The notes: generated from the sequence alone by a model not told the origin. Positions 6,971-39,144 are shown, counted from the first letter of the stretch. The stretch: 64,000 bases of DNA from Escherichia coli (GCF_965641715.1 NZ_OZ282453.1); one strand, 5' to 3'. Translations and numbers: made by a program.

Positions 6971-6992
6971 TAACGTGATTAAGGAATGATCC

Positions 6993-21527: not shown

Positions 21528-21572
21528 GTGAAAATCCTTGTTGATGAAAAAAATGATGACTTAATTTATTGA
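21528..21572 (+). pseudogene. pdxB: Orphaned original 5' end of pdxB (promoter-proximal start fused to phage DNA)
   Basis: gtg aaa atc ctt gtt gat gaa aa... encodes (M)KILVDE, the same N-terminal residues as the PdxB body at 57944, then diverges into phage-side sequence and stops after 14 codons. Confidence 0.65.
21531..21550. repeat. Left attachment-site core (20-bp direct repeat)
   Basis: aaaatccttgttgatgaaaa, identical to 57944..57963 at the other end of the prophage. Confidence 0.7.
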
Positions 21573-21696
21573 TGTAAAAGGATTTATGTCAGCGCGTGTC
21601 CACGCAGTGACCACATTTTCGAGTTACAGATAACACAAAGCCCGTTTTCACGGGCTTTGTGTTATCTGTAATTGTGGCTAAGCCACATGATTTATA

Positions 21697-22590
21697 CTAT
21701 TTCCAGTTACAAGCAGATTGAAGCGGTTTTAGCGCGTTTGACAGGCCGTTTAAATTGAAAGTTGCACTTACGGGGCTCTCATTATAAGGCGTTATTTTTG
21801 TATACATTTTGCTTGAGTTGGCTAGTTTTCGGATGAAATCAATGTCATTACCTTTATAAAAAACAGCCTTTGTATCTGTAGATACTAGCCAGTTTCGCTC
21901 AACTGCTTTCTGTTTATCAAGGCGATAAAGCATGCTGGTTTGTTCAAGGCCTAAATATACATCCCAACTAAGAAATACTTCGGTTTTCTTTTCTCGGCAA
22001 GCTATAAACAGAGTAGGAGTAACCGCTTCTCCAAATGGAGTTCTGATATAATCATCACTTTCTAACGATAAAATTACATTTTTCGAATCATCAATTGGCG
22101 ATGTAGTAATGGATGTGTGCCATTTTCCTACATCTGTGGCTTTCTCTAATTTTGATTCAGCTTGAACGGCTTTATCCTGTGGGAATAGTTTATCGTAGCA
22201 GTTTAGTCTGGCTTCTTTATCATTTTCTGCACGACATTTAGATATCTCAGAAAGATTTGGTTGCTGAGCCTCTGTTGTTACTGGCTTTTCCGTTTTAGAT
22301 TTTGAGTTTACAGATGGAATAAATGTTGGAGAAAAGAAACGATCATAACAAGATAAACGTCTATCATCATCTTTCTCATCAGGGCATTGATCTCTGCTTT
22401 CGAATTTTTCAGCAACTTTCGTTCGAGTCGGTTGTATTGACTTATCGTAACAAGAAAGTCTGTCTTTATTATTTTCTATTGCTCGGCACTGGAGTACTGC
22501 ATTGAAGTTCTTATGTTCAGTTGCTGCGTGAACAGGCAGTACACTAATTGATAAAAATGATGCGCCTATAGAAAAAATTATATTTTTCAT
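21697..22590 (-). CDS. Prophage cargo: secreted protein with three Cys-containing repeats, function unknown
   Basis: 297 aa, signal peptide (MKNIIFSIGASFLSISVLPVHAA), three repeats of C-x(8-10)-RL(S/N)CYD(K/R), then a ~150-aa C-terminal domain; AT-rich codon usage. Confidence 0.6.
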   Translation of the reverse strand: MKNIIFSIGASFLSISVLPVHAATEHKNFNAVLQCRAIENNKDRLSCYDKSIQPTRTKVAEKFESRDQCPDEKDDDRRLSCYDRFFSPTFIPSVNSKSKTEKPVTTEAQQPNLSEISKCRAENDKEARLNCYDKLFPQDKAVQAESKLEKATDVGKWHTSITTSPIDDSKNVILSLESDDYIRTPFGEAVTPTLFIACREKKTEVFLSWDVYLGLEQTSMLYRLDKQKAVERNWLVSTDTKAVFYKGNDIDFIRKLANSSKMYTKITPYNESPVSATFNLNGLSNALKPLQSACNWK

Positions 22591-22594
22591 TTTA

Positions 22595-22927
22595 TTATCC
22601 CTTTGGTTTAGTAAGAAATACTAAAATTCCGATAATGATATCGCCAATAACCCATAAGCTTCCAATGGTAATTAAACCTAAGCCTGTACCAATAACTGCA
22701 CCGGCTTTTTCAGCATCGGATGTGGCATTATTTATTATTTCACTAGTGCCACCTAGTCCAACTAAAAGCGTATAGATCATAAAAATATTAAATAATATAA
22801 AAACCCACTTAATGATCCGTCCAAAAAATGAACGCTTAAGTTTTTGTAGTTGTTTACCACAAGCAGGGCAATACAATGCTGAATCGCTCACCTCTTTCTG
22901 GCATTCAGGACATTTGATTAATGCCAT
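22595..22927 (-). CDS. Prophage cargo: zinc-ribbon membrane protein, function unknown
   Basis: 110 aa with an N-terminal CPEC-x(13)-CPAC zinc ribbon followed by two hydrophobic helices; 4 bp upstream of the repeat protein (probable operon). Confidence 0.6.
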   Translation of the reverse strand: MALIKCPECQKEVSDSALYCPACGKQLQKLKRSFFGRIIKWVFILFNIFMIYTLLVGLGGTSEIINNATSDAEKAGAVIGTGLGLITIGSLWVIGDIIIGILVFLTKPKG

Positions 22928-23139
22928 GTAATCCGCCTCCTTTGGATTAATACGAGTTGATGTTTGTTACAAAACATTTTGATTTTATCAGATTTTTTTT
23001 TATTGATAAGTGTCAATTGATTAGCTGGTATAGAGTGAGGCATATAGAAGGGCTGATCTGTATCAGTATGTGATGCAAAAATCCCACAGTTTCATGGAAT
23101 TTTTGCAGTTAGAGCTGTGAGATAGGGTGCCTTATCGAC

Positions 23140-23185
23140 CTTACCCTGGCAACCGATTGACGGGGGATTGCTCCCCCGTCGCGGT
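23140..23185 (-). terminator. 3' stem-loop of the hok-like transcript
   Basis: gacgggggagcaatcccccgtc hairpin just downstream of the toxin stop on the minus strand. Confidence 0.4.
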
Positions 23186-23189
23186 TTCC

Positions 23190-23330
23190 TTACTGCTTAC
23201 ACTGTAAGAACGCCGCAAACTCCGCTCCCCAGAAGCTCATCCGTATTTCGCACAGCGAACCGTGAAGCATCCAGATGATGAGGATTGCCGTCACGCAGAA
23301 CGTGATGGCCGTAAGCGATTTTTGCGACAT
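23190..23330 (-). CDS. Hok/Gef-like type I toxin (small membrane peptide)
   Basis: Hand-translated 46-aa ORF MSQKSLTAITFCVTAILIIWMLHGSLCEIRMSFWGAEFAAFLQCKQ: hydrophobic helix, then SLCEIR and EFAAF, resembling Hok-family motifs. Absent from the track because it is under 60 aa. Confidence 0.55.
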   Translation of the reverse strand: MSQKSLTAITFCVTAILIIWMLHGSLCEIRMSFWGAEFAAFLQCKQ

Positions 23331-23520
23331 AGCGCTTGCTCCTTTTTCGGGGAGGCGCTAACCTATCACTTGCTTAGGGTAGACGGTTAGGGCCTCGGTT
23401 AAACAAAAGTGTTTTCCGGGGCCTTTCCACATCTGGCCTTCGGGTATTCCCTCCGACCATCAGCCGAAAGGCACCCGCGCGTAATCTATCGCTTTTTTGT
23501 TACTCCGACAATTCTGCCTG

Positions 23521-23781
23521 TTAATTCTGAGGTAAAGGCAAACTCATCTGATTGTTTCCCCTGTGTGAAGCTGGCAGCTCATGCCACGGGATACCTTCTG
23601 ATGAGTGAACGCCGGAGGCGTGTTTCGATGTGAATTTATGGAAAGCTTCCAGTGTTGAGAAGCATACGCCGCATTCCAGATTGTTACACTGGTAATACTT
23701 TTGCCGCACGGTGTTTGAATCATTTTCCGGACGACTGGTGCGGATACGGGCAGATGCGCCACAAAGCGGACAACGGAACAT
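23521..23781 (-). CDS. ogr: Ogr/Delta-family zinc-finger late-gene activator
   Basis: Starts MFRCPLCGASARIRTSR...YYQCNNLECG, the Cys4 pattern of P2 Ogr; sits beside gene D. Confidence 0.85.
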   Translation of the reverse strand: MFRCPLCGASARIRTSRPENDSNTVRQKYYQCNNLECGVCFSTLEAFHKFTSKHASGVHSSEGIPWHELPASHRGNNQMSLPLPQN

Positions 23782-23823
23782 AGCGACCTCCCTTAACGTG
23801 GTGCTGCCGCTATTCTAAGTTGC

Positions 23824-24933
23824 TCACTCTGTTTCTGCTATCCATTCCGGGATTTTTGCTTCAAGCTCAAGCTGCGTGGTAAAGCCACTGTTATCAATGG
23901 TGTGCTCGGCTTTCGCAATAATCCAGTCCTGATTATCAATCTCGCTTTTAAATCCTGTTACCGTGCCATGCATTTCGGGGTAGAGTTCTGCTCGTCCACG
24001 TGTCAGCGTGATGGAGAATGATGCGGCTCCGCGTTGTAGTTGTTGCCACTTTGCCGCCGCTGCGCGTCTTGCTGCCTGCTCGTTCTGATAAGTCTTGCGT
24101 AACACAAACACATTGCCTTCCGCGCCTTCCATATAATCACCTTCACGGCTGCTGCTTTTCTCTTTTTTCGGTTTTGGCGGTTTGCGGCGTTTCACGCTGA
24201 CTTTTTTCTTTTTCCCGTAATTAAGATCAAGCCAGTAAGCGCGTACCCCCGTATACGCTTCGCGGTCAGCAATGCGGAACTGATGGCGATCGCCACTGCT
24301 GCGTGTGATGGCGAACGATGGCAACGGCTGGCCCTGTGCGTTCACGCCACCGCCGGGCATGATGAATAACAGATTACCGCTTTTTACCGTGGTGATTGCG
24401 CCCAGCATTTCCGCCATGCGCGTAAGGAAGGACATGTCACTTTCTTCGGTCTGGTCGGCGTGGTCGATTTCGATATCCATCAGCATTTCGCTGATTTGCG
24501 GTTTCAGACCGTACCGATGAGCGATGGCGGATACCACACGCTCAACGGTCACATCATGCCAGGACACCTCACGTTTAACGTTAAATTCATCCCGAAAATC
24601 TGCGCTTCTGGCTGAAACAGTCAGCCTGTCCGGCGGTCCTTCGTGTGCGATTTCATCAACAATGTAAGAGCCTTTTTCTGCCAGCGGTTCGCCTTTCCAG
24701 CCAATGAGAACCGTCAGGCGCGCGCCCCGTGGCGGTAGCTGCAACTGACCATCCGCATCATCCAGCGTGATGGTTAGCTGATCTGCCTCAAATCCCCGGT
24801 TGTCGGTCAGCGACAGGCTCATCAGGCGCTCTGCCACTCCGGACAGCGTTTTACCCTCCGCGAGAATATCAAAATCCGGCATTTTTACGGGGTCTGTGCT
24901 CTGACTGAGCAATTGCATGGTGGTATCGGTCAT
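23824..24933 (-). CDS. D: Tail protein gpD (late control gene D family)
   Basis: Conserved segments shared with P2 gpD (SLSLTDNRGFEADQL, RSADFRDEF, basic KKKVSVKRRKPPKPKK stretch, C-terminal GFTTQLELE). Start placed at MTDTTMQLL; the track ORF runs 44 codons further upstream. Confidence 0.8.
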   Translation of the reverse strand: MTDTTMQLLSQSTDPVKMPDFDILAEGKTLSGVAERLMSLSLTDNRGFEADQLTITLDDADGQLQLPPRGARLTVLIGWKGEPLAEKGSYIVDEIAHEGPPDRLTVSARSADFRDEFNVKREVSWHDVTVERVVSAIAHRYGLKPQISEMLMDIEIDHADQTEESDMSFLTRMAEMLGAITTVKSGNLLFIMPGGGVNAQGQPLPSFAITRSSGDRHQFRIADREAYTGVRAYWLDLNYGKKKKVSVKRRKPPKPKKEKSSSREGDYMEGAEGNVFVLRKTYQNEQAARRAAAAKWQQLQRGAASFSITLTRGRAELYPEMHGTVTGFKSEIDNQDWIIAKAEHTIDNSGFTTQLELEAKIPEWIAETE

Positions 24934-25090
24934 CTGCTTCCTCCCTGTGCGGCATGGTCGCATGTGCGTGTGGAGGGGGTTACTGCTTTTTGTTGTCGCC
25001 GTGGCGGGAGAACGGCGCAGGGGTGAGATTACGCGCGTGGTGGGTGATGATTGTTGCCGAATCATTTAACGGATACAAGGGGCTGAAGCT

Positions 25091-26275
25091 ATGAGTGAAA
25101 CTCGTTTTCATGGTGCCCGTGTTACGGAAAATACCGATCTGGTAACAGCGATTAACGATGTTGATTCCAGCGTTATCGGTATCGTGGCAACGGCGGATGA
25201 TGCGGACGCGAATCTGTTCCCGCTGAACAAGCCCACACTGCTGACCCGCGTCAATGACGTGCTGGGAAAATGCGGGACAACGGGGACGCTTTATCGTGCG
25301 CTTAAGGCCATCGCAGACCAGGTGAGCACAAAGGTGATCGTCGTTCGCGTGGCTGAACACAAAGAAGAAGACGGAAAGACGCAGGATCAACTGGTTATCG
25401 GTGGTTCTGAGGATGACGGCAGCTATACGGGGATGTATGCGCTGCTTGTTGCAGAGCAGGATGAAAGCATCGGATACCGTCCGCGTATTCTGGCCGCGCC
25501 GGAGCTGGACACGGAGGCGGTAACGAAATCCCTGTGCGTGATTGCAGGTAAACTGCGCGCGTTTGTGTATGCCTCATGTCACGGCTGTAACACGATGGCT
25601 GAGGCGATTACCTACCGCCAGAAATTCAACGAACGTGAGGTGATGCTCTTATGGCCGGACTTCATCGCCTACAACCCGAAAAGTGGCAAAAACGAAACGT
25701 TCCCCGCACCTGCCTATGCGTGCGGCCTTCGTGCGTACATTGACCATGAGCAGGGGTGGCACAAATCACTGTCCAACGTTCCGGTTAAAAATGTGCTGGG
25801 GATGTCGAAGCATGTGTTCTGGTCGTTGCAGGCCGAAGACAGCGATGCCAACAGCCTCAACAACAAAGAAATCACGACCATTATTCGTCGCAACGGGTTC
25901 CGCTTCTGGGGCAACCGCACACCGGAAACGAACGCCTACATCTTTGAGGTGTATACCCGAACCGCACAGGTGCTGGCTGATTCAATTGCGGAAGCGCAGT
26001 TTGAAACCATCGACAGTCCACTGACGCCTGCGAACGTGAAGGATGTTATCAGTGCCATCAGGGCAAAACTGGATTCACTGGTTACTGCCGGGAAACTGAT
26101 TGGCGCGGAGTGCTGGTATGACGTGGTGGATAACAGCACCACGGATTTACGTCAGGGGCGCGTGCGTATTCGCTACAAATATACGCCCGTTCCGCCACTG
26201 GAAGACATGGAGCTTTACCAGACGTTTACTGATGAATACTTTGAACCCGCATTTGCGGTGCTGGGAGGTGCCTGA
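25091..26275 (+). CDS. FI: Contractile tail sheath protein gpFI
   Basis: 394 aa; extended similarity to P2 FI (FPLNKP, KLRAF, WPDF, DHEQGWHKSLSNV, RRNGFRFWGNRT, YTRTAQV, YTPVPPLE). Confidence 0.9.
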   Translation: MSETRFHGARVTENTDLVTAINDVDSSVIGIVATADDADANLFPLNKPTLLTRVNDVLGKCGTTGTLYRALKAIADQVSTKVIVVRVAEHKEEDGKTQDQLVIGGSEDDGSYTGMYALLVAEQDESIGYRPRILAAPELDTEAVTKSLCVIAGKLRAFVYASCHGCNTMAEAITYRQKFNEREVMLLWPDFIAYNPKSGKNETFPAPAYACGLRAYIDHEQGWHKSLSNVPVKNVLGMSKHVFWSLQAEDSDANSLNNKEITTIIRRNGFRFWGNRTPETNAYIFEVYTRTAQVLADSIAEAQFETIDSPLTPANVKDVISAIRAKLDSLVTAGKLIGAECWYDVVDNSTTDLRQGRVRIRYKYTPVPPLEDMELYQTFTDEYFEPAFAVLGGA

Positions 26276-26787
26276 TGGCTGTGCCAAAACATCTTCGCTT
26301 TTTTACGCTGTTTGTGGATGGTGAAAACGAAGTGGGTAAGGTGACGTCCGTCACTCTGCCTAAGCTGACGCGCAAAACCGACAGCTACCGGGGTGGCGGC
26401 ATGATGGGTGCGGTAAGTATTGATCTCGGTCTGGACGACTCCGCGCTTGATGCGAGCTTTGTCATGGGGGGCGCAGTTCGTGAGCTGTTCCTTAAGTATG
26501 GCGGCACGATTGACGGCACGCTGCTGCGTTTTGCGGGTGAATACTACACCGATGCAGAAAGCGACCTGTATGAAGTCGAAATGCGCGGACGTGTGACGGA
26601 AATTGATATGGGGGAAGCCAAACAGGGCGAAGCCACATCACACACTTACGCCATTAAAAACACCTACTACAAGCTGAGTGTTAACGATCGCCCGTTGTGG
26701 GAGATTGACCTGCTGAACTTCATCTACCGGAAGGACGGCAAGGACATTGTGCCTGACCGTATCCGTTCCGCGCTTGGGCTTGGCTGA
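26275..26787 (+). CDS. FII: Tail tube protein gpFII
   Basis: 170 aa, immediately after the sheath gene (ATGATGGCT overlap); size and position as P2 FII. Confidence 0.85.
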   Translation: MAVPKHLRFFTLFVDGENEVGKVTSVTLPKLTRKTDSYRGGGMMGAVSIDLGLDDSALDASFVMGGAVRELFLKYGGTIDGTLLRFAGEYYTDAESDLYEVEMRGRVTEIDMGEAKQGEATSHTYAIKNTYYKLSVNDRPLWEIDLLNFIYRKDGKDIVPDRIRSALGLG

Positions 26788-26841
26788 TAAGTAATATGCA
26801 GGCGGCGCAGTGCGTCGCCTCTGACTGAAAGGAGTTTCCTG

Positions 26842-27207
26842 ATGAAAGAGACGAAAAACATCGATACCGAAAACACGGTAGTTACTGACACTGTGAAAGA
26901 AACCAGTGAGCGTGGCGTAAAACTTACCCAACCAATTGAGCGAGGCGGCGAAAAAATCACGTATGTGGAGATCACCGGGGCTATTGAGCAGGCTGGATCT
27001 CTGCGAGATTTGTCGCTGTCTGATGTGCTGAATCTGAAAGCGGAATCCATGTTTACGCTGCTGTCACGCGTGACATCACCGCGACTGGATGAAGTGACGA
27101 TCAAAAAAATGGCATCCCGTGACTTTATTCAGTTATGTGTGGTTGCCGTAAATTTTTTGAGCGGTGCGGACTCTGGCGGGAAGAACGAACAGGCGACGGA
27201 AGCCTGA
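26842..27207 (+). CDS. E: Tail assembly chaperone gpE
   Basis: 121-aa acidic ORF between tube and tape-measure genes; carries a slippery site near its 3' end. Confidence 0.75.
   Translation: MKETKNIDTENTVVTDTVKETSERGVKLTQPIERGGEKITYVEITGAIEQAGSLRDLSLSDVLNLKAESMFTLLSRVTSPRLDEVTIKKMASRDFIQLCVVAVNFLSGADSGGKNEQATEA
27153..27159 (+). other. Programmed -1 frameshift site for the E+E' fusion chaperone
   Basis: Heptamer T TTT TTG in the gpE frame; the -1 frame stays open to 27371 (E' extension), the same device P2 uses. Confidence 0.7.
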
Positions 27208-27321
27208 TCACGGTTGTGTGCTTTGAGCACATAGAAGACTTTGTGGCGGATATTGCCGCCATTTTTAACTGGTCGCCCGCCGAAATCTTCATGATGACTC
27301 CCGGCGAAGTGGTTAGCTGGC

Positions 27322-30165
27322 GTGAGCGGGCGGCACTTCGCAGCGGGAATACAGACAATGAAGACTCTTGATATCCGGGTCGCTTTCAGCGCCGTTGACA
27401 GGCTGACCCGGCCTGCCGAAAACGCCCGCCGCCTGATGGGGCAGTTTGGTGACTCCATCCAGCGAACGCAGGGGGCGATCAAAAATCTCGAGCGTCAGGC
27501 GCGTTCATTTGAGCGCGCCCGTGACGCTGTCAGTAAAGCGGATGCTGGCATATTGAAAGCACGACGCCAGCTTAACGCTCTTAATCAGTTACAACGCACG
27601 GGTACAGTGCTCAGCGAAAAACAACAAAAGCTGATGCAGCAGTTAAGCACCCGGCTTGAACGCCTGAATGAATCGCGCACACGGGAAATTCAGAAAATGC
27701 GGGAACTTGGCGGAGAGCTGAAACGCCACGGCATTTCCCTGACAGGCAGCGATAACACCATCCAGCAGGCCATCAGACGCACCGAACAGTACAACAACCA
27801 GCTTGAACGCGAACGGCAGGCGCTTGCGCGTGTAACGCGGGCGCGTGAGCGGTATTCGCGCGCGCAGGAAACCGCGGGAAAACTGAAAACAGGTGGTGCG
27901 CTGGCAATTGGTGCGGCAGCGGCGGGCGGCTATGCTGCCGGGCGTTTTTTGCAGCCCGCGATCGGGTTCGGCAAAGAGATGTCCCGCGTTCAGGCGCTGA
28001 CGCGAATCGACCAGAACAGCCCGCAGTTTAAGGCGCTGCGTGAGCAGGCGTTAAAACTTGGCTCTGAAACGCAGTTCACCGCAGGCGATGCCGCCAGTGG
28101 GCAGGCATTTCTTGCAATGGCTGGCTTCACACCGCAGGCCATTCAGGCTGCGCTCCCCGGAGTGCTGAGCATGGCAACGGCTGGCGGTATGGATCTCGGC
28201 GAGACGGCAGATATTGGCTCAAATATCCTGACGCAGTTCGGCCTTTCTGCTGACCAGATGGACCGGGTCGGTGACACGCTCACCGCAGCGTTTACCCGTA
28301 CCAACACTGACCTTCGCGCACTGGGCGAAACCATGAAATATGCAGGTCCGGTGGCGGGCAAGCTGGGAATATCGCTGGAGCAGGCCGCAGCGATGGCGGG
28401 CGTGCTGGCGAATATGGGTATCAGGGGAAGTGATGCCGGGACGGCAATGCGTGCCAGCCTGGCTCGTCTTGCATCACCGCCAAAGGCGGCAGCAGAGGCG
28501 CTGAAAGAGCTTGGTGTGGCAGTCTCTGACGCGAACGGCAAAATGCGCCCGATGGAGGATGTGCTGGCCGACCTTTATAAAGCCACCCGCAAATACGGGG
28601 AAGTTGACCGGGTATCGTTCTTTAAGGACATTGCCGGAGAAGAGGCTTTCACATCGTTTATGGCGCTCGTTGATGCAGCGGGTGACGGTTCCTTACCTAA
28701 ACTGAGAAAAGAACTTGAAGGCGCGCGCGGTGAGGCTGAACGCACAGCAAAGGTTATGGCCAACAACCTTGACGGCGATCTGAAATCACTCGGCAGTGCA
28801 TGGGAAGGGTTGCGCATCCGCATTGCAGATCTGATTGACGGCCCGCTGCGTTCTGTCACGCAGTGGCTCACGCGGGTGGTATCAAGGGTGACGGCGCTGG
28901 CGCAGGCCCATCCGGCACTGACGCGCCAGCTACTGATAGCAGGCGGTGCGTTGCTGGCAATGACTGCAACGATTGGCTCGTTGTCGCTGGTTATTGGCGT
29001 GCTTCACGGGAAACTGGCCACGTTACGTCTTGGTTTTTCTCTCCTGACCGGATCAATGAATGTCGTCAGGGTGCTGCCAGCACTATGGGGAATGGTAACA
29101 GGTTCCATCTCGTTGCTGGGTGGCGCTATCGGGGCGCTGTTCAGTCCGGTCGGATTGATTGTTGCCGCGTTTGTGGCTGCGGCGGTTCTCATCTGGAAAT
29201 ACTGGGAACCCATCAAGGCGTTTTATGCCGGGGTGTTCAGTGGAATTATGGAACGGCTGGCTCCGTTGCGCGAAACCTTTGAACGGTTTGGTCCTGTTTT
29301 TGATGTCGTGCGCGATGGGATTATTCAGCTCTTTAACTGGTTTAAATCGCTGCTGTCACCGATGGAGTCCAGCAAGGAAACGCTGGATAAATGTACCAGT
29401 GCTGGCGAGATATTCGGTAACGTTCTTGGTGGCGCGCTACAGCTTGTTCTGACGCCTGCAAAAATGCTGCTGGATACGCTGGCGTGGATACTTGAAAAAC
29501 TCGGTGTGCTTCCGGATGAAGCGGAAAGGGCGAGAAAGAAAATCGAAGACGCACAGCGTGCGGCCATTCTTCAGGACAAGGTTGCCTTGCTTCAGGGGGA
29601 CCTGGCGAAAATCAATCCGCCGAAGCCTGTGGAAAATGGCAATGGCACCGGAGGTGATAACCCCAAAGACAATAAACCGCTCACAGACAGCAATACCGGG
29701 ACGCTACGCAGACTCAGCAAAATTGCTGATAACACAGGTAAGCTGGTTGATGAGACGAAAAAACGCATTGGCCCCGGCGATATTGTCTTTAAGAACCTGC
29801 CCCGCGCACTTGCTGTTCGTGGGGAGTGGCAGGAGCGGAAGATTGCGCAGGTCAGTAAGCCTGCCCCCGCAATTAATATCACCCCCGTGGTCCCGGCTCC
29901 GCTGCCTCCGGCGCTGGTCCCTGTTGTTGCGGCCAGCTCCCGCCCGGTGGCGGAGGCCATACGATCTCCAGTGGCATCAGTTCCTGTAACTTCCCGTAAC
30001 CGGGAGCCTGTTGCCTCCGGATTTGGTGGTGAAATTCATGTTCATCTGCATAACGTTGTTACGCAGAATCCCCGCGAACTGGCGAAACTGGTCGGTGAAA
30101 TGGTCAGGGCAGAAATGGAACGGCGCGCCCGTGCCGGGCGTGGCAGTTTTTACGATAAAGATTGA
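27322..30165 (+). CDS. T: Tail tape-measure protein gpT
   Basis: 947 aa, Ala/Gly-rich with coiled-coil N-terminus and central hydrophobic segments; follows E/E'. Confidence 0.88.
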   Translation: MSGRHFAAGIQTMKTLDIRVAFSAVDRLTRPAENARRLMGQFGDSIQRTQGAIKNLERQARSFERARDAVSKADAGILKARRQLNALNQLQRTGTVLSEKQQKLMQQLSTRLERLNESRTREIQKMRELGGELKRHGISLTGSDNTIQQAIRRTEQYNNQLERERQALARVTRARERYSRAQETAGKLKTGGALAIGAAAAGGYAAGRFLQPAIGFGKEMSRVQALTRIDQNSPQFKALREQALKLGSETQFTAGDAASGQAFLAMAGFTPQAIQAALPGVLSMATAGGMDLGETADIGSNILTQFGLSADQMDRVGDTLTAAFTRTNTDLRALGETMKYAGPVAGKLGISLEQAAAMAGVLANMGIRGSDAGTAMRASLARLASPPKAAAEALKELGVAVSDANGKMRPMEDVLADLYKATRKYGEVDRVSFFKDIAGEEAFTSFMALVDAAGDGSLPKLRKELEGARGEAERTAKVMANNLDGDLKSLGSAWEGLRIRIADLIDGPLRSVTQWLTRVVSRVTALAQAHPALTRQLLIAGGALLAMTATIGSLSLVIGVLHGKLATLRLGFSLLTGSMNVVRVLPALWGMVTGSISLLGGAIGALFSPVGLIVAAFVAAAVLIWKYWEPIKAFYAGVFSGIMERLAPLRETFERFGPVFDVVRDGIIQLFNWFKSLLSPMESSKETLDKCTSAGEIFGNVLGGALQLVLTPAKMLLDTLAWILEKLGVLPDEAERARKKIEDAQRAAILQDKVALLQGDLAKINPPKPVENGNGTGGDNPKDNKPLTDSNTGTLRRLSKIADNTGKLVDETKKRIGPGDIVFKNLPRALAVRGEWQERKIAQVSKPAPAINITPVVPAPLPPALVPVVAASSRPVAEAIRSPVASVPVTSRNREPVASGFGGEIHVHLHNVVTQNPRELAKLVGEMVRAEMERRARAGRGSFYDKD

Positions 30166-30171
30166 GGAGTC

Positions 30172-30666
30172 ATGGCCATGATGATGATCTACGGCATGTT
30201 TGTTTTTGAGCTGCGCACGTTGCCGCATCAGCAGTTACAGCAAAACAAAAGCTGGCGGCATGTGAAAAATGAACGCGTTAACCGTTCAGCAAGCTGGCAG
30301 TATATCGGGGCAGGCGATGATCGCATCGTTCTTTCTGGTGTGCTTTATCCTGAAATTACAGGTGGCGAAGTGTCGCTTTCGTTGCTGACCACGCAGGCAT
30401 ATACAGGACGCCCCTGGCCTCTGATTGATGGTGTCGGGCAGATTTACGGCATGTATGTCCTGACCGGAACGAATACGACCCGTTCCGAGTTTGATCGCTA
30501 CGGTAAGGCGAAAAAGATAGAATTTTCACTGACCCTTGAACGCTGTGATGAGGATTTGCGGGAGCGCCTGCAATCCTCATCGTTCAGCGATATGCTGTCC
30601 GGCTTCAAAGATAAGGTGACATCATCTCTTAACAGCGCGGCCAGTTCAGTTAAAGGGCTGTTCTGA
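30172..30666 (+). CDS. U: Tail protein gpU
   Basis: 164-aa ORF directly after the tape-measure gene, the position and size of P2 gpU. Confidence 0.75.
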   Translation: MAMMMIYGMFVFELRTLPHQQLQQNKSWRHVKNERVNRSASWQYIGAGDDRIVLSGVLYPEITGGEVSLSLLTTQAYTGRPWPLIDGVGQIYGMYVLTGTNTTRSEFDRYGKAKKIEFSLTLERCDEDLRERLQSSSFSDMLSGFKDKVTSSLNSAASSVKGLF

Positions 30667-30675
30667 TTTAACACA

Positions 30676-30709
30676 AAAACCGCTAATGGTCAGATTAGCG
30701 GTTATTTTG
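30676..30709. terminator. Bidirectional intrinsic terminator between gpU and the invertase gene
   Basis: aaaaaccgctaatggtcagattagcggttattttgtttt: a 9-bp perfect stem (accgctaat/attagcggt) flanked by A-run and T-run, between convergent genes. Confidence 0.7.
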
Positions 30710-31307
30710 TTTTCTGACTCTTCTCTATTGCTCCGCTTGATTCTCCTGCGGGGTGGTAACGATAAATCGTCGATGTACCAATGCCGTAAATTATTGCCAG
30801 TTGTTTTCTGTCGTGACCGTTTTTAATCAGCCTTGCTATTTGCTCATGCTGTTCTTTTGTCAGCTTCGGGCGACGTCCGCCTGTGCGCCCCCGTGCGCGC
30901 GCTGCTGCCAGTCCGGCCAGTGTACGTTCAACAATTAATTCACGTTCCATTTCAGCCAGGGCACCCATCACGTGGAAGAAAAAACGCCCCATTGGAGAAG
31001 ATGTATCTATGCTGTCGGTCAGACTGCGAAAATTAATCCCTCGCTCCCGTAGTTCCCCGACGAGAGAAATCAGATGTTTCATGCTTCGCCCGAGGCGATC
31101 CAGTTTCCAGACAACCAGCGTGTCACCTTTTTGAAGACGCTTTAAAGCGCGTTTTAATCCCGGTCGGTCTGTCTTTGTCCCGCTTAATTTATCTTCAAAT
31201 ATTTGTTCACATCCTGCACAAACAAGAGCGTTTCGTTGCAGGTCTGTATTCTGGTCATTTGTTGATACCCTTACATAGCCAATCAGCACGCTGAATCTCC
31301 CGTCCAA
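30702..31307 (-). CDS. Serine DNA invertase (Hin/Gin/Cin/Pin family)
   Basis: IGYVRVSTNDQNTDLQRNAL...GDTLVVWKLDRLGRSMKHL...MGRFFFHVMGALAEMERELIVERT, near-identical in pattern to Hin/Gin including the catalytic Ser; C-terminal HTH. True start may lie a few codons inside the ORF. Confidence 0.9.
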   Translation of the reverse strand: MDGRFSVLIGYVRVSTNDQNTDLQRNALVCAGCEQIFEDKLSGTKTDRPGLKRALKRLQKGDTLVVWKLDRLGRSMKHLISLVGELRERGINFRSLTDSIDTSSPMGRFFFHVMGALAEMERELIVERTLAGLAAARARGRTGGRRPKLTKEQHEQIARLIKNGHDRKQLAIIYGIGTSTIYRYHPAGESSGAIEKSQKTK

Positions 31308-31342
31308 AAGCGTAAATCATGCCATGCAGGTCAGAAACGGCC

Positions 31343-31368
31343 ATTATCTAAAACCTCGGTTTACAGGA
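31343..31368. repeat. Invertase crossover site, left (gix/hix-like 26-mer)
   Basis: ttatctaaaacctcggtttacaggaa, an imperfect palindrome of the Hin/Gin site type; inverted copy at 34409..34434. Confidence 0.8.
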
Positions 31369-32374
31369 AACGGTAAACAGGGCTGGTAACGCCGTGCAAA
31401 AAAATGGCGATACTTTGTCCGGTGGGCTTACTTTTGAAAATGACTCAATCCTTGCCTGGATTCGAAATACTGACTGGGCGAAGATTGGATTTAAAAATGA
31501 TGCCGATGGTGACACTGATTCATACATGTGGTTTGAGACAGGCGACAACGGCAATGAATATTTCAAATGGAGAAGCAAACAAAGCACCACAACAAAAGAC
31601 CTGATGAATCTTAAATGGGATGCTTTGTATGTTCTTGTTAAAGCTCTTTTCAGCAGTGAAGTAAAAATATCGACAGTCAATGCACTGAGGATATTTAATT
31701 CATCTTTTGGTGCCATTTTTCGCCGTTCTGAAGAATGCCTGCATATCATCCCTACACGAGAGAATGAGGGGGAAAATGGTAATATAGGGCCACTACGTCC
31801 CTTTACGCTTAATCTCAGAACTGGCCGCATAACTATGGGGCATGGTCTGGATGTTACAGGAGATATAACAACTAACGCCTGGGTGTATGCAAACAGGTTT
31901 GCTATTAATAGTGGCTCAACCTCATGGATTGATATGCGAAACCAGAATGTCATTTTTGGTAGAAACGCAGTATCAACAAGTTCTGCGCAGGCTTTGTTAA
32001 GACAAGACCATGCAGAACGCAAATTTTTTGTCGGTGGACTTGGTAACTACCAGTTTGGTTTTTACATGATTAATAACTCAAGGACAGCCAATGGCACCGA
32101 TGGTCAGGCGTACATGGACAATAACGGTAACTGGCTTTGTGGCTCGCAAGTTATTCCTGGCAACTATGGCAATTTTGATTCCAGATATGTGAGAGATGTT
32201 CGCCTGGGTACGCGAGTTGTTCAATTGATGGCGCGTGGTGGTCGTTATGAAAAAGCCGGACACGCAATTACCGGATTAAGAATCATTGGTGAAGTAGATG
32301 GCGATGATGAAGCCATCTTCAGGCCAATACAAAAATACATCAATGGCACATGGTATAACGTCGCACAGGTGTAA
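31369..32374 (+). CDS. Alternative tail-fibre C-terminal cassette (silent in this orientation)
   Basis: Frame open from the crossover site; encodes ETVNRAGNAVQKNGD..., parallel to the H segment after its own site, and ends ...INGTWYNVAQV like the expressed fibre. No promoter or N-terminus of its own. Confidence 0.75.
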
Positions 32375-32905
32375 ATGATGCAGCATTTAAAAAATATTAA
32401 GTCTGGAAATCCTAAAACGAAAGAACAATATCAGCTAACAAAGAATTTTGATGTTATCTGGTTATGGTCCGAAGACGATAAAAACTGGTATGAGGAAGTG
32501 AAAAACTTTCAGCCAGACACAATAAAGATTGTTTACGATGCAAATAATATTATTGTCGCCATCACTAAAGATGCCTCCACGCTTAACCCTGAAGGTTTTA
32601 GCGTCGTTGAGGTTCCTGATATTACAGCCAACCGCCGCGCTGATGATTCAGGAAAGTGGATGTTTAAGGATGGAGCTGTAGTTAAACGGATTTATACGGC
32701 AGACGAACAGCAACAACAAGGCGAATCACAAAAGGCCGCATTGCTTTCCGAAGCTGAATCAGTCATCCAGCCGCTGGAACGCGCTGTCAGGCTGAATATG
32801 GCAACAGACGAGGAACGCACACGACTGGAAGCATGGGAACGCTACAGTGTTCTGGTCAGCCGTGTGGATACGGCAAATCCTGAATGGCCACAAAAGCCTG
32901 AATAA
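32375..32905 (+). CDS. Tail-fibre assembly chaperone (partner of the silent cassette)
   Basis: 176 aa, [26 protein letters not shown]...; clear paralog of the oppositely oriented 177-aa ORF. Confidence 0.8.
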
Positions 32906-32933
32906 AAATTAAGGCCCGCGATCGGGCCTTGTC

Positions 32934-33467
32934 TCATTCAGGTTGTTCGGGAAATGTTACTGGCAGGCTGGAGGTGTCTGTAGATTCGACTTTCTGCGCA
33001 TAGAGCATCCACTCGGTTAATTTTTGTTTATTCTCGTCGGAAATGATGCCCAGCCGTAGCTGTGAGTCCCATAGCTGGGTTTTATCCCTAACGAGCTGTA
33101 GCAGGCTTTGCTTTTCATTTTCCGCCTGCTGCCTCTGCTCTTCCTCGGTATAAGTTCGCTTTACCACTACGCCATCTTTGAACATCCATTTACCAGAAAT
33201 ATCAGCCCGGCGATTTGCTGTAATATCAGGAACCTCAACGACGCTTGCGCCTTCTGGATTAATTGCTGAAACATCCTTTTCAATACAAATAATAACGTTG
33301 TTGTGGTCATAGACCATTTTCAACGTATCAGGCTGAAAGTTCTTTTGTTCCTCATACCAGTTTTTCCCATCCTCTGTATAAAGCCATTTGATGTTAAATT
33401 GTTTCGTTAGCTGGTATTGCTCTTTTGTTTTAGGGTTGCCAGCAGTAATATTTTTTAAGTGCATCAT
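32934..33467 (-). CDS. Tail-fibre assembly chaperone (partner of the expressed fibre)
   Basis: 177 aa, [25 protein letters not shown]...; directly downstream of H on the same strand. Confidence 0.8.
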
Positions 33468-33469
33468 AA

Positions 33470-35698
33470 TTAAATACTCCCCGCGTTATACCACGTCCCA
33501 TTAATGCAATACTGAATTGGCCTTGCCTGAGTTGTATCAATTAATTCATCACGGTTTCCGTTAACTGAACCCGTAACGACATAACCTGACCTGTCAGACC
33601 AGCCGGGACCATTCCATGTCTGAACAGATGACAGACCGCCAAGGCGAATACCTGTAATAAACCTTGAGTTACATTCTGCCTGCGTGTATGCACCAACATC
33701 TCCCGCAGAGGGTTTGCGGGTCGTGGTGTAAAACTCTGACCAGTTAGCCTCAAATCCATAACCATCACGCGCTGAACGATAAAAAATACCGCCGTTCCTG
33801 TAATTCACGCGGAACTGTACAGCAGGGCAGCTCCCCGTATTCATATTGAAGTGGAGGATTAATGTCGATGCACCGCTGATATCTGCATCATAAACACCGC
33901 TATTCCAGTTCCAGCCAACAGCTTTATCATTTGCAACCCTGCTTCCTGTTTGCCCTAAAGCAAATGCAGGCTGCTGGTTTTTCGTGTTGTAGTCTCTTCG
34001 CCAGCCAGGAGCATAAGCATCACCATGATTAATATAAGTGAATTGAGCGTTAGAGGTGCCGCCTCCGGTGGAAGTGCTTGGTGTTGTTACACGGATGGTC
34101 ATGGCACCTTTATTACCCATAACCTCAATAACGCAACCTGCAAGATGAATAGTTCCACAGCCAGTATCGGTAATAATTTTATTATTGCCGTATGACCATG
34201 AACATTTGCACATCCAGTATGGGTGATTGAATGCCCCTTGAGAATCCAGCCATTCAATCAATTGTGCCGTTGTCCAGTTCCCTGCCCCTGTACTAATAGC
34301 ACTGTGAAAAGCGCGACATGCACCAATATTTTTTGTGAAGGTATCTTTTCCTGGAATATCTGCGCCGTTCTGGTTTTTCTGTAATGCGCCAGAAGCCTGA
34401 TTTACCGTTTCTTGTAAACCGAGGTATTCGATAACGGCAGCAACGGTCGATTTCGCAAGAATATCCCGCCCGACTTTTGTCAGGGTTGCCAGGCTGGCGA
34501 CATCATTCCCCGTAAAATACGGAAACCTGTCTGCCGCAGTAGCAAGCCCGGCCAGCGCCGTCAGGGTGGCATCTTTCGGTTGCTTACCCGCAAGCGCGTT
34601 AGTCATGGTGGTCGCAAAATTCGGGTCGTTTCCCAGCGCCGCCGCTAACTCGTTCAGCGTATTCAGTGCGTCAGGTGACGAATCTACAAGGGCGGCAATC
34701 GCAGCCATAACGAAAGCCGTGCTTGCGATTTGGGTATTATTCGTTCCCTGTCGCGCAGTTGGCGTTGTTGGCGTTCCGGTCAGCGCAGGACTGTTTAAGG
34801 GCGCTTTCTTGTTCGTTTCATCCATTACCGCCTTAACCGCTTTCGATGTCGCGGCCAGTGTTTCAGACGTGCTGTTGGTGGCACTACTGAGCTGGACTAT
34901 CCCTTTTTGTGCCGTCGTGGCGTCCTGAGCGGTATATTTTGCGTTAGCAAGGTCATACGCGGCCTTTACTGCTTTCGGCGTTGCAGCCTGCGTTTCAGAC
35001 GTGCTGTTGGTGGCGCTACTGAGCTGAACTATCCCTTTTCGCGCAGTGGTAGCGTCCTGTGCGGTGTATTTGCCATTAGCCAGGTCATATGCCGCCTTAA
35101 CAGCCTTTGGCGTTGCCGCAAGCGTTTCAGACGTGCTGTTAGTGGCGCTGCTAAGTTGAACAAAGCCTTTTGCGGTCAGCGAGGCGTCCGGGTGACGTCG
35201 TGAGTGTTCATGCTCTTTCAGTTTGTCATCCACGTAATCCACTGTGGCCATTACCATGGTGTTATCCACGGTAAGCGCCACGGTGGCAGTGCTGGATACG
35301 GTCAGAATGGTGCGAAATGTTTGTGCACGTCCTGACCCTTCGGCAACGGTTGGCTTGTAACTTTCGGCAGTATTGCCTACTGCGATTAAATCGCCGTGCT
35401 CATCAAACACACCAATTTCCCGGATCCAGAATCCGCCCGTTTCTGGAGGAATAACCAGCTCCGCAATAATGCGGTTCTGATGTGTTGCGTCCAGGATGAC
35501 GCGATTAACAGTGTGTCGCCACACCTCATGCACCAGACGGGTCTGCTTACTGTCTGGTGTGGGCAACGTGCCGCCACCGTCGCCCACGGCCATATGAGTC
35601 AGGCGGACAGGCTTACCATCTGGCGCGGCTGCCTGAGCTAATTTTTTTGCACCCGTATCGGTGATAACGGTTTTAAATTTTCGTGTTGTGGTACTCAT
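33470..35698 (-). CDS. H: Tail fibre protein gpH (constant N-terminus plus currently selected variable C-terminus)
   Basis: 742 aa; conserved phage-fibre N-terminus, three tandem 43-aa repeats, crossover site near codon 421, C-terminus ...[12 protein letters not shown]. Confidence 0.85.
34409..34434. repeat. Invertase crossover site, right (gix/hix-like 26-mer, inside gene H)
   Basis: ttcttgtaaaccgaggtattcgataa, the inverted partner of the left site. Confidence 0.8.
34906..35290. repeat. Three tandem ~129-bp repeats inside the tail-fibre gene
   Basis: The DNA repeats encode [43 protein letters not shown] three times with minor variation. Confidence 0.7.
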
Positions 35699-35700
35699 GC

Positions 35701-36231
35701 TTAATCGTCCGGATAAATGGTAATGACTTCACCGTCGTAAGTTGCTGCCGCCGCGAAAATATCTCCCGGGATCTCCTGAATGATATTCAGCCCTGTCATG
35801 TGGCGGCTGACCGGGCGGGCATCAGCAATCAACCGCTCCATTTCCAGATACATTTCCTCCGTCACGCCACTGTCCAGCGTGCCGACTTCAACGGTAAATG
35901 TTCCCGGTTCTCCGTCGAACTCCCACCACTCAGACACGCGAATGAGGTATCCCAGCGGCTCAATGGCCCGGCGCAGTGCGCTGATGGTCCCTTTGTGTCG
36001 GTGTATCAGCCATGCATCACGAATCACCTGTCGCTTTGTCTCTTCCGGCCAGTTGCGATCCCAGCGGTCAACGGAAAATGCCCAGGCGAGATAAGGCAGC
36101 AAATGCACCGGGCAGGTGTCCGGTGACCACAGCGTGTTGAGGTCTACCGGGATGTCTGTAATGCGCGCTCCGACAGCTTCGGCGCAACGCATGAAACGGC
36201 TGGCTGATGGCGGTAACAGTGAATTACTCAT
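35701..36231 (-). CDS. I: Baseplate protein gpI
   Basis: Syntenic between J and H. Start placed at MSNSLLPPSASRF, about 176 aa; the track ORF extends 11 codons further upstream. Confidence 0.75.
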   Translation of the reverse strand: MSNSLLPPSASRFMRCAEAVGARITDIPVDLNTLWSPDTCPVHLLPYLAWAFSVDRWDRNWPEETKRQVIRDAWLIHRHKGTISALRRAIEPLGYLIRVSEWWEFDGEPGTFTVEVGTLDSGVTEEMYLEMERLIADARPVSRHMTGLNIIQEIPGDIFAAAATYDGEVITIYPDD

Positions 36232-37120
36232 TGCGCCCACCTTCGCTGATGGTGAATGACTCACAGCGCGCCGCCTGTATGTCGCTGATGGCCAGATTCT
36301 GTGTGGGTTCGATTATCTCCACGCGTTGCACACCGTGCACATGCAGTGCGGCAGCAATGGCGGACAACGCCACGTCCTGACCGATAAGCCCCTGCTCAGC
36401 CAGCCACTTCCTGAACGACGATTCAGCCGCCGCCAGAATAGGTTCGGATTCCGGGCCGGGGTAAAAGTACAGTTTTGCATTCAGCCGCCATGTCACGATT
36501 CTGGCACTCTGTACGGTCAGGCGGTCGGCCACCGGGCGGGTATCCTCTGCATTCAGAACGGCGCGAACGGTATTAAGCAACGCCTCCGTTGCTGTGCCGT
36601 CGCCCTCAGTGGACAGGATGGAAACCGTCACGTTGGCCGGAGACGGGCTGATGGCCCGCGCATCGCGCACCAGACCGCTGGCGCTGCGTGCAAAATACTC
36701 GTATGCGCCTGACGGGCCAGCAACACTCAGACCATCATACGCCCGTTGCGCCCGCAGTCTCAGCGAGGTGTCGCTCTCCATCACCGCGTCGGTGGTATCC
36801 GTTGCCGGAGTGATAACCAGGCGCTTTGTGTTCATATTGCCCGCGAGGTTGTCCAGGTCTGTTCCGGTGCTGTGGCTCAACATGCAGGCGCGTGCGCCCT
36901 CGTTAACCCGCTGGCGTAACAGCATTTCACGAAACGACATGGTTTGAGCGATAACGTTCAGGGGTTCCGATTCCAGCTCCAGCGCGGCGGAGACGGCTTC
37001 ACGCTGTTCGGCGGGATAAGCCGCAATCATCATGGCCTTTGTGTCAGCCAGAATTGCTTCAAAGTCAGGCTCCGCGATGATGGCGGGTTCCGGTAACTGG
37101 GAAAGGTCAACGGCAGGCAT
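36224..37120 (-). CDS. J: Baseplate wedge protein gpJ
   Basis: 298 aa, size and position of P2 gpJ. Confidence 0.8.
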   Translation of the reverse strand: MPAVDLSQLPEPAIIAEPDFEAILADTKAMMIAAYPAEQREAVSAALELESEPLNVIAQTMSFREMLLRQRVNEGARACMLSHSTGTDLDNLAGNMNTKRLVITPATDTTDAVMESDTSLRLRAQRAYDGLSVAGPSGAYEYFARSASGLVRDARAISPSPANVTVSILSTEGDGTATEALLNTVRAVLNAEDTRPVADRLTVQSARIVTWRLNAKLYFYPGPESEPILAAAESSFRKWLAEQGLIGQDVALSAIAAALHVHGVQRVEIIEPTQNLAISDIQAARCESFTISEGGRNE

Positions 37121-37123
37121 GAT

Positions 37124-37474
37124 TTACTCCCTCAGCGTGATGGTTAATTCAACATTCTGCATGGTCTGCATGACAGTACCCGACAGCGTCACCCCGGCGC
37201 GGCCTCCTGCTTTCCAGACAACGTCGATGGCATCCAGGGCAATGCGGGGTTCCCATCGCGTCAGTGCAATCACGGCAGCACTCATGCATTGCAGACGCGT
37301 GGTGTTATTCATGGGTTCGTCAATTAAATCAGGCACAAGGCTGCCATATTCCCGTCGCATAACCCGGCTTGCCAGCGGGGTGATCAGGATGTCCCTGACT
37401 GACTGTTTCAGGTGCTCCATATCGTTCAGGTTTCCCGTCCCGTCCGGGTTCATTCCTGTGTAGCGGGTTGTCAC
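37124..37474 (-). CDS. W: Baseplate protein gpW
   Basis: 116 aa, between V and J as in P2. Confidence 0.8.
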   Translation of the reverse strand: MTTRYTGMNPDGTGNLNDMEHLKQSVRDILITPLASRVMRREYGSLVPDLIDEPMNNTTRLQCMSAAVIALTRWEPRIALDAIDVVWKAGGRAGVTLSGTVMQTMQNVELTITLRE

Positions 37475-38693: not shown

Positions 38694-39144
38694 CCCACGT
38701 CACATCCTGGAATACATGCGACCAGTCGCCTTCGGAGGAGGGCAGGCGGGGTTTTGGCTCCGGCAGGTGTTCTGCCTGCGGTGTCCCCTGACTGTTGCGC
38801 GTGATGCGAACGCGTTCCCGCAGGGGGAGCGTAAACAGGAGATCGGCGCTGTCATCGTCATTGATAACGGCGGAAAATTTGATGTCCTGATTACACTCCG
38901 GATTAAGCAACAACTGTGGCTGATTTTCGGATAACCACGCCAGCAGCGGCAGCGTGAGGTCGTCCAGCTCTCCGGCGTAATCCATGACAAACATCACCAT
39001 CTGATAGCGGTAAACAAACGAGGGCGTTTCTCCGGTCGTTTCAATGTTGCCGCTCTCCACGAAAATGGTGAATTTTTCCGGGTTGGCCTGACACCATCGG
39101 CATGAACGGGTCATGGCTTCACGCAGGGAATCAGTTTTCAGCAT
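38677..39144 (-). CDS. Tail completion protein gpR-like
   Basis: 155 aa, syntenic between the lysis genes and gpS. Confidence 0.7.
   Translation of the reverse strand: MLKTDSLREAMTRSCRWCQANPEKFTIFVESGNIETTGETPSFVYRYQMVMFVMDYAGELDDLTLPLLAWLSENQPQLLLNPECNQDIKFSAVINDDDSADLLFTLPLRERVRITRNSQGTPQAEHLPEPKPRLPSSEGDWSHVFQDVTWGESDG

Follow-up and report, generated by a model that had tools for sequence, protein, structure and literature searches.

The 64,000-nucleotide stretch of Escherichia coli DNA analysed here (the window) very probably carries an intact hok/sok-type type I toxin–antitoxin module, with a toxin of Hok peptide cluster 72, as a moron beside ogr in a P2-like prophage. Its 46-codon gene does encode a membrane toxin of the Hok family and has a predicted antisense-RNA control region. 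A 60-aa cut-off on open reading frames conceals real small toxin genes, as this case confirms. The gene is already known from RefSeq, from phage records, from a named PHROG and from a catalogue of tested Hok toxins that lists the exact peptide; the finding is correct and ordinary, and it carries little weight as a discovery since the gene has been catalogued. The apparent absence of mok from an abundant prophage Hok cluster seems to be the only aspect that goes beyond the databases and papers cited below.

The Hok peptide and its previous record

The toxin gene occupies the following position.

23190..23330, minus strand: hok open reading frame, 46-aa Hok/Gef family toxin, ATG start, product identical to WP_000078916.1 and to Hok 72_1621.

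Translation of this interval on the minus strand gave 46 codons, MSQKSLTAITFCVTAILIIWMLHGSLCEIRMSFWGAEFAAFLQCKQ, in which residues 7–22 are hydrophobic and lie N-terminal to SLCEIR (residues 25–30) and EFAAF (residues 37–41). The hand translation offered by the initial annotation, a 46-aa peptide with a hydrophobic helix, SLCEIR and EFAAF, was accurate. The layout is the Hok/Gef hallmark: 46 aa against the ~50 expected, an N-terminal hydrophobic helix, and the (S/D)LCE motif as S25-L26-C27-E28, with C27 and E28 invariant in 16 homologs. Profile searches bore out the proposal of a Hok/Gef-like type I toxin. Pfam PF01848 (HOK_GEF) matched residues 7–44 over profile positions 5–42 of 42 (29.9 bits, cut-off 22, E 4.1e-7), and PHROG 251 (“MokW-like host killing”) matched residues 1–46 over profile positions 2–49 of 50 (80.6 bits, E 1.3e-22). 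Among the NCBIfam models the best match was the HokA equivalog NF007290, for which the peptide reached 34 bits against a cut-off of 89; with the Hok family toxin subfamily NF007279 it reached 21.6 bits against a cut-off of 73, a model on which R1 Hok scored 126.4 as a control. Since it lies under both cut-offs, the peptide is neither HokA nor an R1-type Hok, and the Pfam and PHROG matches taken with the NCBIfam misses make it a Hok/Gef member of a distinct subfamily. The toxin family and the SLCEIR motif are common to the window hok and to the hok/mok/sok systems of R1 (parB) and R1-like IncF plasmids; R1 Hok, however, has 52 aa, whereas the window peptide has 46 and falls short of the NCBIfam Hok models. 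A homolog search covering 5.8 billion proteins returned 67 protein clusters, all from E. coli, Shigella, Salmonella or Klebsiella, and every named cluster among them was called Hok/Gef or HokA.

The initial annotation regarded the gene as unannotated, which is true only of an ORF track limited to frames of at least 60 aa. A 461-bp query spanning the locus was 100% identical to E. coli RM10740 (NZ_CP043821.1), and a second query of 1461 bp was 99.9% identical to the same genome, in which RefSeq annotates the frame as F1748_RS13130 / WP_000078916.1, “Hok/Gef family protein”. RefSeq annotates hok in RM10740 and in ~1,500 other genomes, the window peptide being the commonest RefSeq form, and the locus is carried by 1,549 of 5,426 complete E. 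coli genomes. Phage records name the gene as well: the Peduoviridae genomes P88, Chuche, Xuanwuvirus P884B11 and 500465-2 carry the locus, with the gene named “MokW-like host killing”. Many Stx2a phages also carry it, at ~82% identity.

The identical peptide appears as Hok 72_1621 (Table S2), a member of a high-abundance cluster, cloned as LRP137, in a recent catalogue of Hok toxins (Escalera-Maurer et al., bioRxiv 10.1101/2025.08.07.668861). There is no protein-level difference between cluster 72 (72_1621; WP_000078916.1; PHROG 251) and the window toxin, the amino-acid sequences being identical. In that study 42 of 45 Hok homologs were toxic on arabinose induction, the exceptions being 19_179, 60_1482 and 69_1540. 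Because 72_1621 belonged to the set of 45 homologs put through induction and is absent from the three exceptions, it is toxic by the preprint’s text, in line with the toxicity on expression anticipated for the gene; the toxicity reported is that of a coding sequence overexpressed from a plasmid, not of the native locus. The same work found hok four-fold enriched in prophages. Mok, Sok, the mRNA of cluster 72 loci and the siting beside ogr fell outside its analysis.

Predicted structure of the hok mRNA and of a putative antisense unit

The elements assigned to the toxin mRNA, all on the minus strand, are listed below.

23483..23511, minus strand: putative weak hok promoter (-35 TTGTCG, 23511..23506; 17-nt spacer; -10 TAGATT, 23488..23483), proposed from a reading of the sequence.
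23122..23476, minus strand: predicted full-length hok mRNA core, ~355 nt, from Rfam leader homology and folding; its 3' end includes the fbi-like element.
23462..23476, minus strand: tac-like 5' element, GGGUGCCUUUCGGCU, able to pair with either of two partners but not with both, from predicted folds and covariation.
23418..23428, minus strand: box GGAAAGGCCCC, with which the 5' element pairs internally in the truncated fold to give the tac-stem of the processed mRNA.
23352..23396, minus strand: processed-mRNA hairpin, GAGGCCCUAACC...GGUUAGCGCCUC, helix 6 of the truncated fold and third hairpin of the RF01794 model.
23339..23343, minus strand: hok Shine-Dalgarno sequence (SD) AGGAG, 8 nt upstream of the ATG, read from the sequence; the full-length fold pairs its GGAG with CUCC.
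23158..23181, minus strand: 3' stem-loop, GACGGGGGAG-CAA-UCCCCCGUC, G+C-rich, right after the hok stop, from folding, scan and covariation.
23125..23140, minus strand: fbi-like 3' element, GGUCGAU-AAGGCACCC, predicted to pair with the 5' end (helix 1 of the full-length fold).

Over its full length the Rfam model RF01794 matched the hok strand at 23476..23317, with 45.7 bits (E 2.2e-8), below the gathering score of 59. Though named “sok”, this model covers the sense-strand hok leader, as its match in an R1-like plasmid, on the hok strand, starts at the 5' end of the mRNA and reaches the hok ATG (87.2 bits). The window match therefore places the mRNA 5' end near 23476 and gives a leader of 146 nt. 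The long structured leader of ~190 nt described earlier is confirmed as structured and is shortened, by R1-type leader homology, to ~146 nt. Between the leader 5' end and the ogr stop at 23521 there remain 45 nt, which contain the putative weak promoter; this begins 10 nt past the ogr stop codon and agrees with the sigma-70 consensus at 8/12 positions. Homology among related loci begins at its TAGATT/TAGAAT hexamer. The mRNA 5' end of hokW, from the Stx2 prophage Sp5/933W, starts GCGGGTGC..., as in the window (primer sequences, PMC8621323).

The 355-nt RNA (23476..23122) folded with a minimum free energy of -156.3 kcal/mol (z = -6.16), and none of 100 shuffled sequences folded as well. In the full-length fold the 5' element (23476..23462) pairs with 23140..23125, and when the RNA was cut right after the 3' stem-loop the same element paired with 23428..23418 instead. 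The hairpin at 23352..23396 in the truncated fold holds the anti-SD CCUC in its 3' arm, while its 5' arm and loop are complementary to the predicted Sok-like RNA; no stretch varies more among relatives than this loop. The G+C-rich hairpin said to follow the hok stop was found at 23181..23158, where the promoter/terminator scan reported an inverted repeat on the plus strand, and it is likely to be the end-protecting hairpin of the processed mRNA. The span first given for the feature, 23140–23520, stands except that the 3' pairing partner 23133..23125 falls just below its lower limit. The mRNA logic is common to R1 and the window: a tac-like 5' end that pairs with an fbi-like 3' element or with an internal box, and a 3' stem-loop.

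Covariation was examined in 38 distinct related loci (65–97% DNA identity) that lie in P2-like or lambdoid prophages of E. coli, Salmonella and Klebsiella. All 80 loci returned by an alignment-based locus search encode the identical peptide, and the divergent loci were gathered through contigs encoding homologous peptides. For the full-length structure 94.2% of alignment cells were paired and 25 pairs had changed on both sides, compared with 37–45% and 3–9 pairs in slid controls; for the truncated structure the figures were 95.5% and 16 pairs, compared with 38–44% and 2–8 pairs. As the structures were derived from the window sequence, the percentages paired are inflated relative to the slid controls, and the compensatory counts are less affected. 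In the 5'/3' pairing (helix 1 of the full-length structure, 15 pairs) both sides had changed in 4 pairs, and 95.9% of cells were paired; the tac-stem (helix 1 of the truncated structure) had 3 such pairs and 96.9% of cells paired; and in the 3' stem-loop (helix 16) 5 of 9 pairs had changed on both sides, with 98.8% of cells paired. Columns 20 and 21 lie within the 5' element and show covariation with each of its two partners (UA/CG 30:7 and 31:7; CG/GC 31:4 in both). We conclude that the hok mRNA has the family’s hallmark mutually exclusive long-range pairings, both backed by compensatory changes. In 1997 Gultyaev, Franch and Gerdes reportedly described coupled covariation in the family of hok mRNAs, and we take the covariation at columns 20 and 21 to be an instance of it.

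These compensatory changes bear on whether the module might be an inert remnant, decayed as most hok loci on the E. coli K-12 chromosome are. Decay is common: frameshifted, read-through and partial forms of the peptide occur in databases, the leader of one relative (L085) lacks its 5' part, and K-12 hokA/mokA is interrupted by IS150. The window elements, however, are all intact (the ORF, the SD, the 5'/3' pairing, the stem-loop and the antisense hexamers), its peptide matches exactly both the form commonest in RefSeq and the toxic form that was tested, and the compensatory changes imply that selection still maintains the RNA structure. We regard decay of this copy as very improbable.

Opposite the leader, two elements of an antisense unit are proposed.

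23336..23364, plus strand: putative Sok-like promoter (-35 TTGCTC, 23336..23341; 17-nt spacer; -10 TAACCT, 23359..23364), from positional homology.
23371..23430, plus strand: predicted Sok-like antisense RNA, ~60 nt, from its fold and position.

The initial annotation expected an antisense promoter on the plus strand around 23330..23420. The candidate found there agrees in position and is weak, with only 6/12 sigma-70 consensus positions, and its identification is by positional homology. At its hexamer positions the 38 loci show little or no variation, and its position and layout are shared with the promoter of R1-like systems (TTGCGC-17-TATCCT in these, TTGCTC-17-TAACCT in the window), both overlapping the region from the target hairpin to the hok SD. 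It also corresponds to the promoter region upstream of annotated sokC in K-12. Neither proposed promoter (hok 8/12, Sok-like 6/12) was listed by the promoter scan, which had a threshold of 9/12 consensus positions, so both proposals rest on homology only. The RNA expected from the antisense promoter would begin with a ~14-nt single-stranded 5' tail and fold beyond it into a long hairpin, with UUUCC after that (-23.2 kcal/mol, z = -2.35). It would lie 41–100 nt upstream of the hok ATG, and annotated sokC, 59 nt long, occupies the same place in K-12, 49–107 nt upstream of the hokC ATG. By analogy with sokC and R1 Sok, which lie at this position, we infer a Sok-like antisense unit opposite the leader.

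A leader with no conserved mok frame

In R1, Hok synthesis requires translation of mok up to the hok SD, and a mok-like overlapping frame had been suggested for the window. Leader ORFs were sought in all three frames, with ATG, GTG or TTG starts, in the 38 loci. No conserved leader ORF was found in these loci; the upstream ORFs vary in start, frame and end, for which reason they were rejected as a conserved mok, and one locus (L088) has none at all. The same scan found the open leader frame in the positive controls, hokC and the R1-like locus L004. In the window the frame that is mok in hokC/mokC is closed by the following element.

23358..23360, minus strand: TAG in the hok frame, with its position 10 codons upstream of the ATG.

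A stop in this frame precedes hok in 38 of 38 loci (TAG at -30 in 35, a stop at -18 or -9 in the other 3) and blocks a mokC-type extension. K-12 mokC and mokA are in-frame upstream extensions that share their stop codons with hokC and hokA; thus the frame that is open into hok in K-12 is closed in the window by the TAG at -30. This TAG overlaps the -10 hexamer of the putative Sok-like promoter, which may explain its invariance. We conclude, from the lack of a conserved leader ORF together with the in-frame stop in every locus, that the locus probably works like hok/sok and is not a canonical hok/mok/sok.

Accessibility of the hok ribosome-binding site (RBS) was modelled as the energy needed to open the segment from AAGGAG to AUG+2. 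In the window this was 10.9 kcal/mol for the full-length RNA, 8.0 for the truncated RNA and 12.0 for the truncated RNA with the Sok site blocked; the means of the 38 loci were 11.5, 8.4 and 11.9 kcal/mol, respectively. The truncated RNA was easier to open than the full-length RNA in 38 of 38 loci, and easier than the Sok-blocked RNA in 36 of 38. In the R1-like control it was the mok RBS that responded to truncation (13.6 kcal/mol full-length, 9.0 truncated), whereas the hok RBS stayed costly throughout (17.5 full-length, 16.6 truncated, 14.8 Sok-blocked). In these calculations, therefore, the hok RBS of the window cluster behaves like the mok RBS of R1: R1 has mok and the window seems to lack it, and the in silico change of accessibility falls on the hok RBS in the window and on the mok RBS in R1. 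The modelled energies suggest that the switch would act directly on the hok RBS. The mean unpaired probability of the hok SD was ~0.2 in the full-length, truncated and Sok-blocked states alike.

A sequence of events compatible with these predictions can be outlined. Transcription from the weak promoter past ogr would yield a stable, closed full-length mRNA with the hok RBS buried. Slow 3' trimming to the stem-loop would take away the fold-back partner of the 5' end, which would then pair internally, and a new hairpin would capture the anti-SD, lowering the cost of opening the hok RBS by ~3 kcal/mol. An antisense RNA (~23371..23430, plus strand), short and unstable, would pair with the 5' arm of the hairpin at 23352..23396, return the anti-SD to the SD and probably trigger RNase III cleavage. 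Hok would then be made only once the supply of antisense RNA stops. In the thermodynamic modelling the 8 kcal/mol cost of opening the truncated hok RBS is still a substantial barrier.

The alternative is a canonical three-gene hok/mok/sok module, in which Hok needs translation of an overlapping mok and the antisense RNA blocks the mok start. Mok dependence is the rule in R1 and in hokC/mokC, and GAGG, the mok SD in R1, is conserved here at 23396..23393; no start codon, however, lies at a usable distance after it in any locus. A long out-of-frame upstream ORF (ATG at -130 or -103) crosses the hok start in 17 of the 38 loci, the window not being among them, and a leader frame confined to some lineages, or a non-canonical start, may exist. 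The antisense RNA predicted for the window would cover both a GTG at 23369 and the start of a 24-codon upstream ORF (ATG at 23432). Yet both window upstream ORFs (ATG at 23432 and at 23460) end short of the hok ATG, by 27 and 44 nt, and the starts, frames and ends of such ORFs are inconsistent among loci, with the mokC-type extension closed in every one. Consistently, longer entries for the peptide in the protein database were C-terminal read-throughs or frameshifts, and none of its homologs there had an N-terminal extension. With the hok RBS energetics here resembling those of the R1 mok RBS, we consider a canonical three-gene arrangement improbable.

A further reading of the leader is put forward tentatively: the 46-aa Hok cluster could be a natural mok-less variant of hok/sok, in which a processing switch and a Sok-like RNA control the hok RBS directly, Sok pairing freeing the anti-SD with no block of a leader peptide, and the family could by now be a standard end-of-prophage moron. 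If this were confirmed, the hok folding pathway would prove able to regulate the toxin’s own ribosome-binding site, and the mok-less locus would offer a simpler natural system for the action of Sok.

Prophage setting and possible role

The hok gene lies immediately 3' of ogr (23521..23781, minus strand; Pfam Ogr_Delta, 52 bits), which is upstream of it. Two genes follow downstream on the minus strand, one for a membrane protein with a zinc ribbon (22595..22927), the other for a VasI/TagO-like protein (21697..22590). When the region was compared with the empty site in K-12, a 20-bp att core, AAAATCCTTGTTGATGAAAA, was recognised within the first codons of pdxB, with one copy at 21531..21550 and the other at 57944..57963. 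These att copies delimit a prophage of ~21551..57943, so that the zinc-ribbon and TagO-like genes are prophage cargo; the integrase gene (56742..57761) is at the opposite end from hok. An att site was also sought around 22900–23140 by exact-repeat and local-alignment search, and only chance-level 12-nt matches were found there. The gene calls and the att comparison agree with the initial siting of hok between cargo genes and ogr. The element is a 36-kb P2-like prophage of E. coli (P88/Xuanwuvirus-type), with hok as a moron immediately 3' of ogr. P2-like prophages are non-inducible. A search of the literature for hok beside ogr in P2-like phages gave nothing relevant. The slot between hok and att has other contents in relatives: phage Chuche has Com and a methyltransferase there, and strain FWSEC0002 has a RES-domain gene; nothing occupies it in a Salmonella P2-like prophage, where hok comes last. 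In E. coli and Salmonella, P2-like phages and some lambdoid ones may carry the 46-aa Hok family as a standard moron at the prophage end. The R1 module is plasmid-borne, whereas the window module is chromosomal, within a prophage; K-12 hokC/mokC/sokC and hokA/mokA are likewise chromosomal loci.

Of the roles considered, addiction to the end of the prophage and to its cargo is the likeliest, which we hold as a possibility rather than as an established function. Post-segregational killing that stabilises the prophage, as the initial annotation proposed, is plausible. A role of type I toxin–antitoxin systems in prophage maintenance is cited by Escalera-Maurer et al. (bioRxiv 10.1101/2025.08.07.668861).

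Alternatively, the module might help lysis: the antisense RNA would vanish in lytic growth and Hok would help to permeabilise the membrane and release progeny, as for hokW-sokW of Sp5. That prophage-borne pair, shown to be a toxin–antitoxin system of type I, is the only experimentally studied prophage hok/sok pair; it speeds growth arrest and doubles phage release on induction, and its deletion halved Sp5 release and delayed growth arrest (PMC8621323). Lytic read-through into hok is conceivable here, since hok lies directly 3' of the late-gene activator ogr and the promoter/terminator scan found no terminator between the two. Sp5, however, is an SOS-inducible lambdoid prophage, and HokW (51 aa, MKQQKAM...DYESEK) belongs with HokD to another Hok cluster, 35, whereas the 46-aa window peptide belongs to cluster 72. 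We think a lysis function rather unlikely. Identity of the window gene with hokW was rejected, as HokW differs in length, in sequence and in 60%-identity cluster. The Stx2a phage matches at 82% identity were likewise rejected as hokW; they represent a separate 46-aa hok of the window’s cluster.

An anti-phage defence, in which an invading phage stops transcription in the host, the antisense RNA, being short-lived, is lost, and death by Hok comes before that phage has matured, appears about as doubtful as a part in lysis. In the preprint that lists cluster 72, hok was not enriched near defence systems (bioRxiv 10.1101/2025.08.07.668861). On the other side, P2-like prophages hold defence cargo at variable slots, and one relative of the window locus has its RES-domain gene beside hok.

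Variable loop of the predicted Sok target, and tandem hok copies

Across the aligned related hok loci (A2), conservation is otherwise high, and variation peaks in the loop of the predicted Sok-target hairpin, a segment that corresponds to the 5' tail of the predicted Sok-like RNA. A codon-sized triplet at one loop position reads TAA, TAG, TTG or TTA, depending on the locus. This variability is consistent with toxin/antitoxin pairs that have diversified in their pairing specificity. Some Salmonella contigs, including L092 and L093, carry two tandem copies of the hok locus, ~490 bp apart. Both the peptides and the Sok-target loops of these copies have diverged from each other, which points to a duplication after which the copies grew apart in specificity.

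Variable loop and tandem copies
A2 columns ~104-126 (window 23385..23365): variable Sok-target loop
L092, 2501..2641 and 2991..3131: tandem hok copies
L093, 2501..2641 and 2995..3135: tandem hok copies

The hok leader and mRNA 3' end

RF01794, which Rfam calls "sok antitoxin (CssrC)", matched, in the window and in the R1-like plasmid L004, the stretch from the hok mRNA 5' end through the hok ATG. Because these matches fall on the hok sense strand in both, RF01794 is a model of the hok leader and not of the 64-nt Sok RNA; the strand of a match should therefore not be taken as the antitoxin strand.

Leader matches and 3' hairpin
Window 23317..23476 (-): RF01794 match
L004 282..453 (+): RF01794 match
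Window 23066..23097 (-): A/U-rich hairpin, AAAAAUUCCA-UGAAACUG-UGGGAUUUUU, ~30 nt past the fbi-like element (predicted 3' partner of the mRNA 5' end)

In L004 (pMTY1886_IncFII; 394..453), the mok ATG precedes the hok ATG by 57 nt and lies in the same frame. For R1, the position numbering of PMC9841398 points to a spacing of 58 nt, out of frame. The only Hok that PGAP annotates in L004 is a 33-aa, 5'-truncated one (508..609). In the window, the A/U-rich hairpin is a candidate intrinsic terminator for the full-length hok mRNA. Its sequence is not conserved, but the corresponding place in other loci is taken by a different hairpin.

Prophage surroundings of hok

The P2-like prophage (~36.4 kb) is inserted within the first codons of pdxB. 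This gene now has a new SD (AAAGGAG) and a start codon, TTG, that come from the prophage end, so that (M) plus 14 residues (not shown) replace the original N-terminus, M-KILVDEN....

Prophage features
Window 21531..21550 and 57944..57963: duplicated 20-bp core, AAAATCCTTGTTGATGAAAA
Window 57900..57965: pdxB start region
Window 21697..22927 (-): cargo pair, zinc-ribbon membrane protein and VasI/TagO-like (type VI secretion-associated) protein
Window 23824..25065 (-): gpD, mechanically called ORF of 413 aa

The cargo pair is uncommon (239 of 5,426 E. coli genomes) and, in the records inspected, invariably adjoins the hok/ogr prophage end; 9 of its 240 matching places are plasmid-borne. In a relative (L097 5248..6075), an additional gene, for a RES-family NAD+ phosphorylase, separates hok from the pair. 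The gpD ORF, whose N-terminal extension is rich in arginine and proline, looks over-extended, and the gpD start in the window prophage is uncertain; at this position RefSeq has only an 801-nt "VgrG/Pvc8 family" CDS (6725..7525 in the compared record L001) and a partial pseudogene. As in P88-type phages, the tail sheath and tube genes lie on the strand opposite to gpD and ogr.
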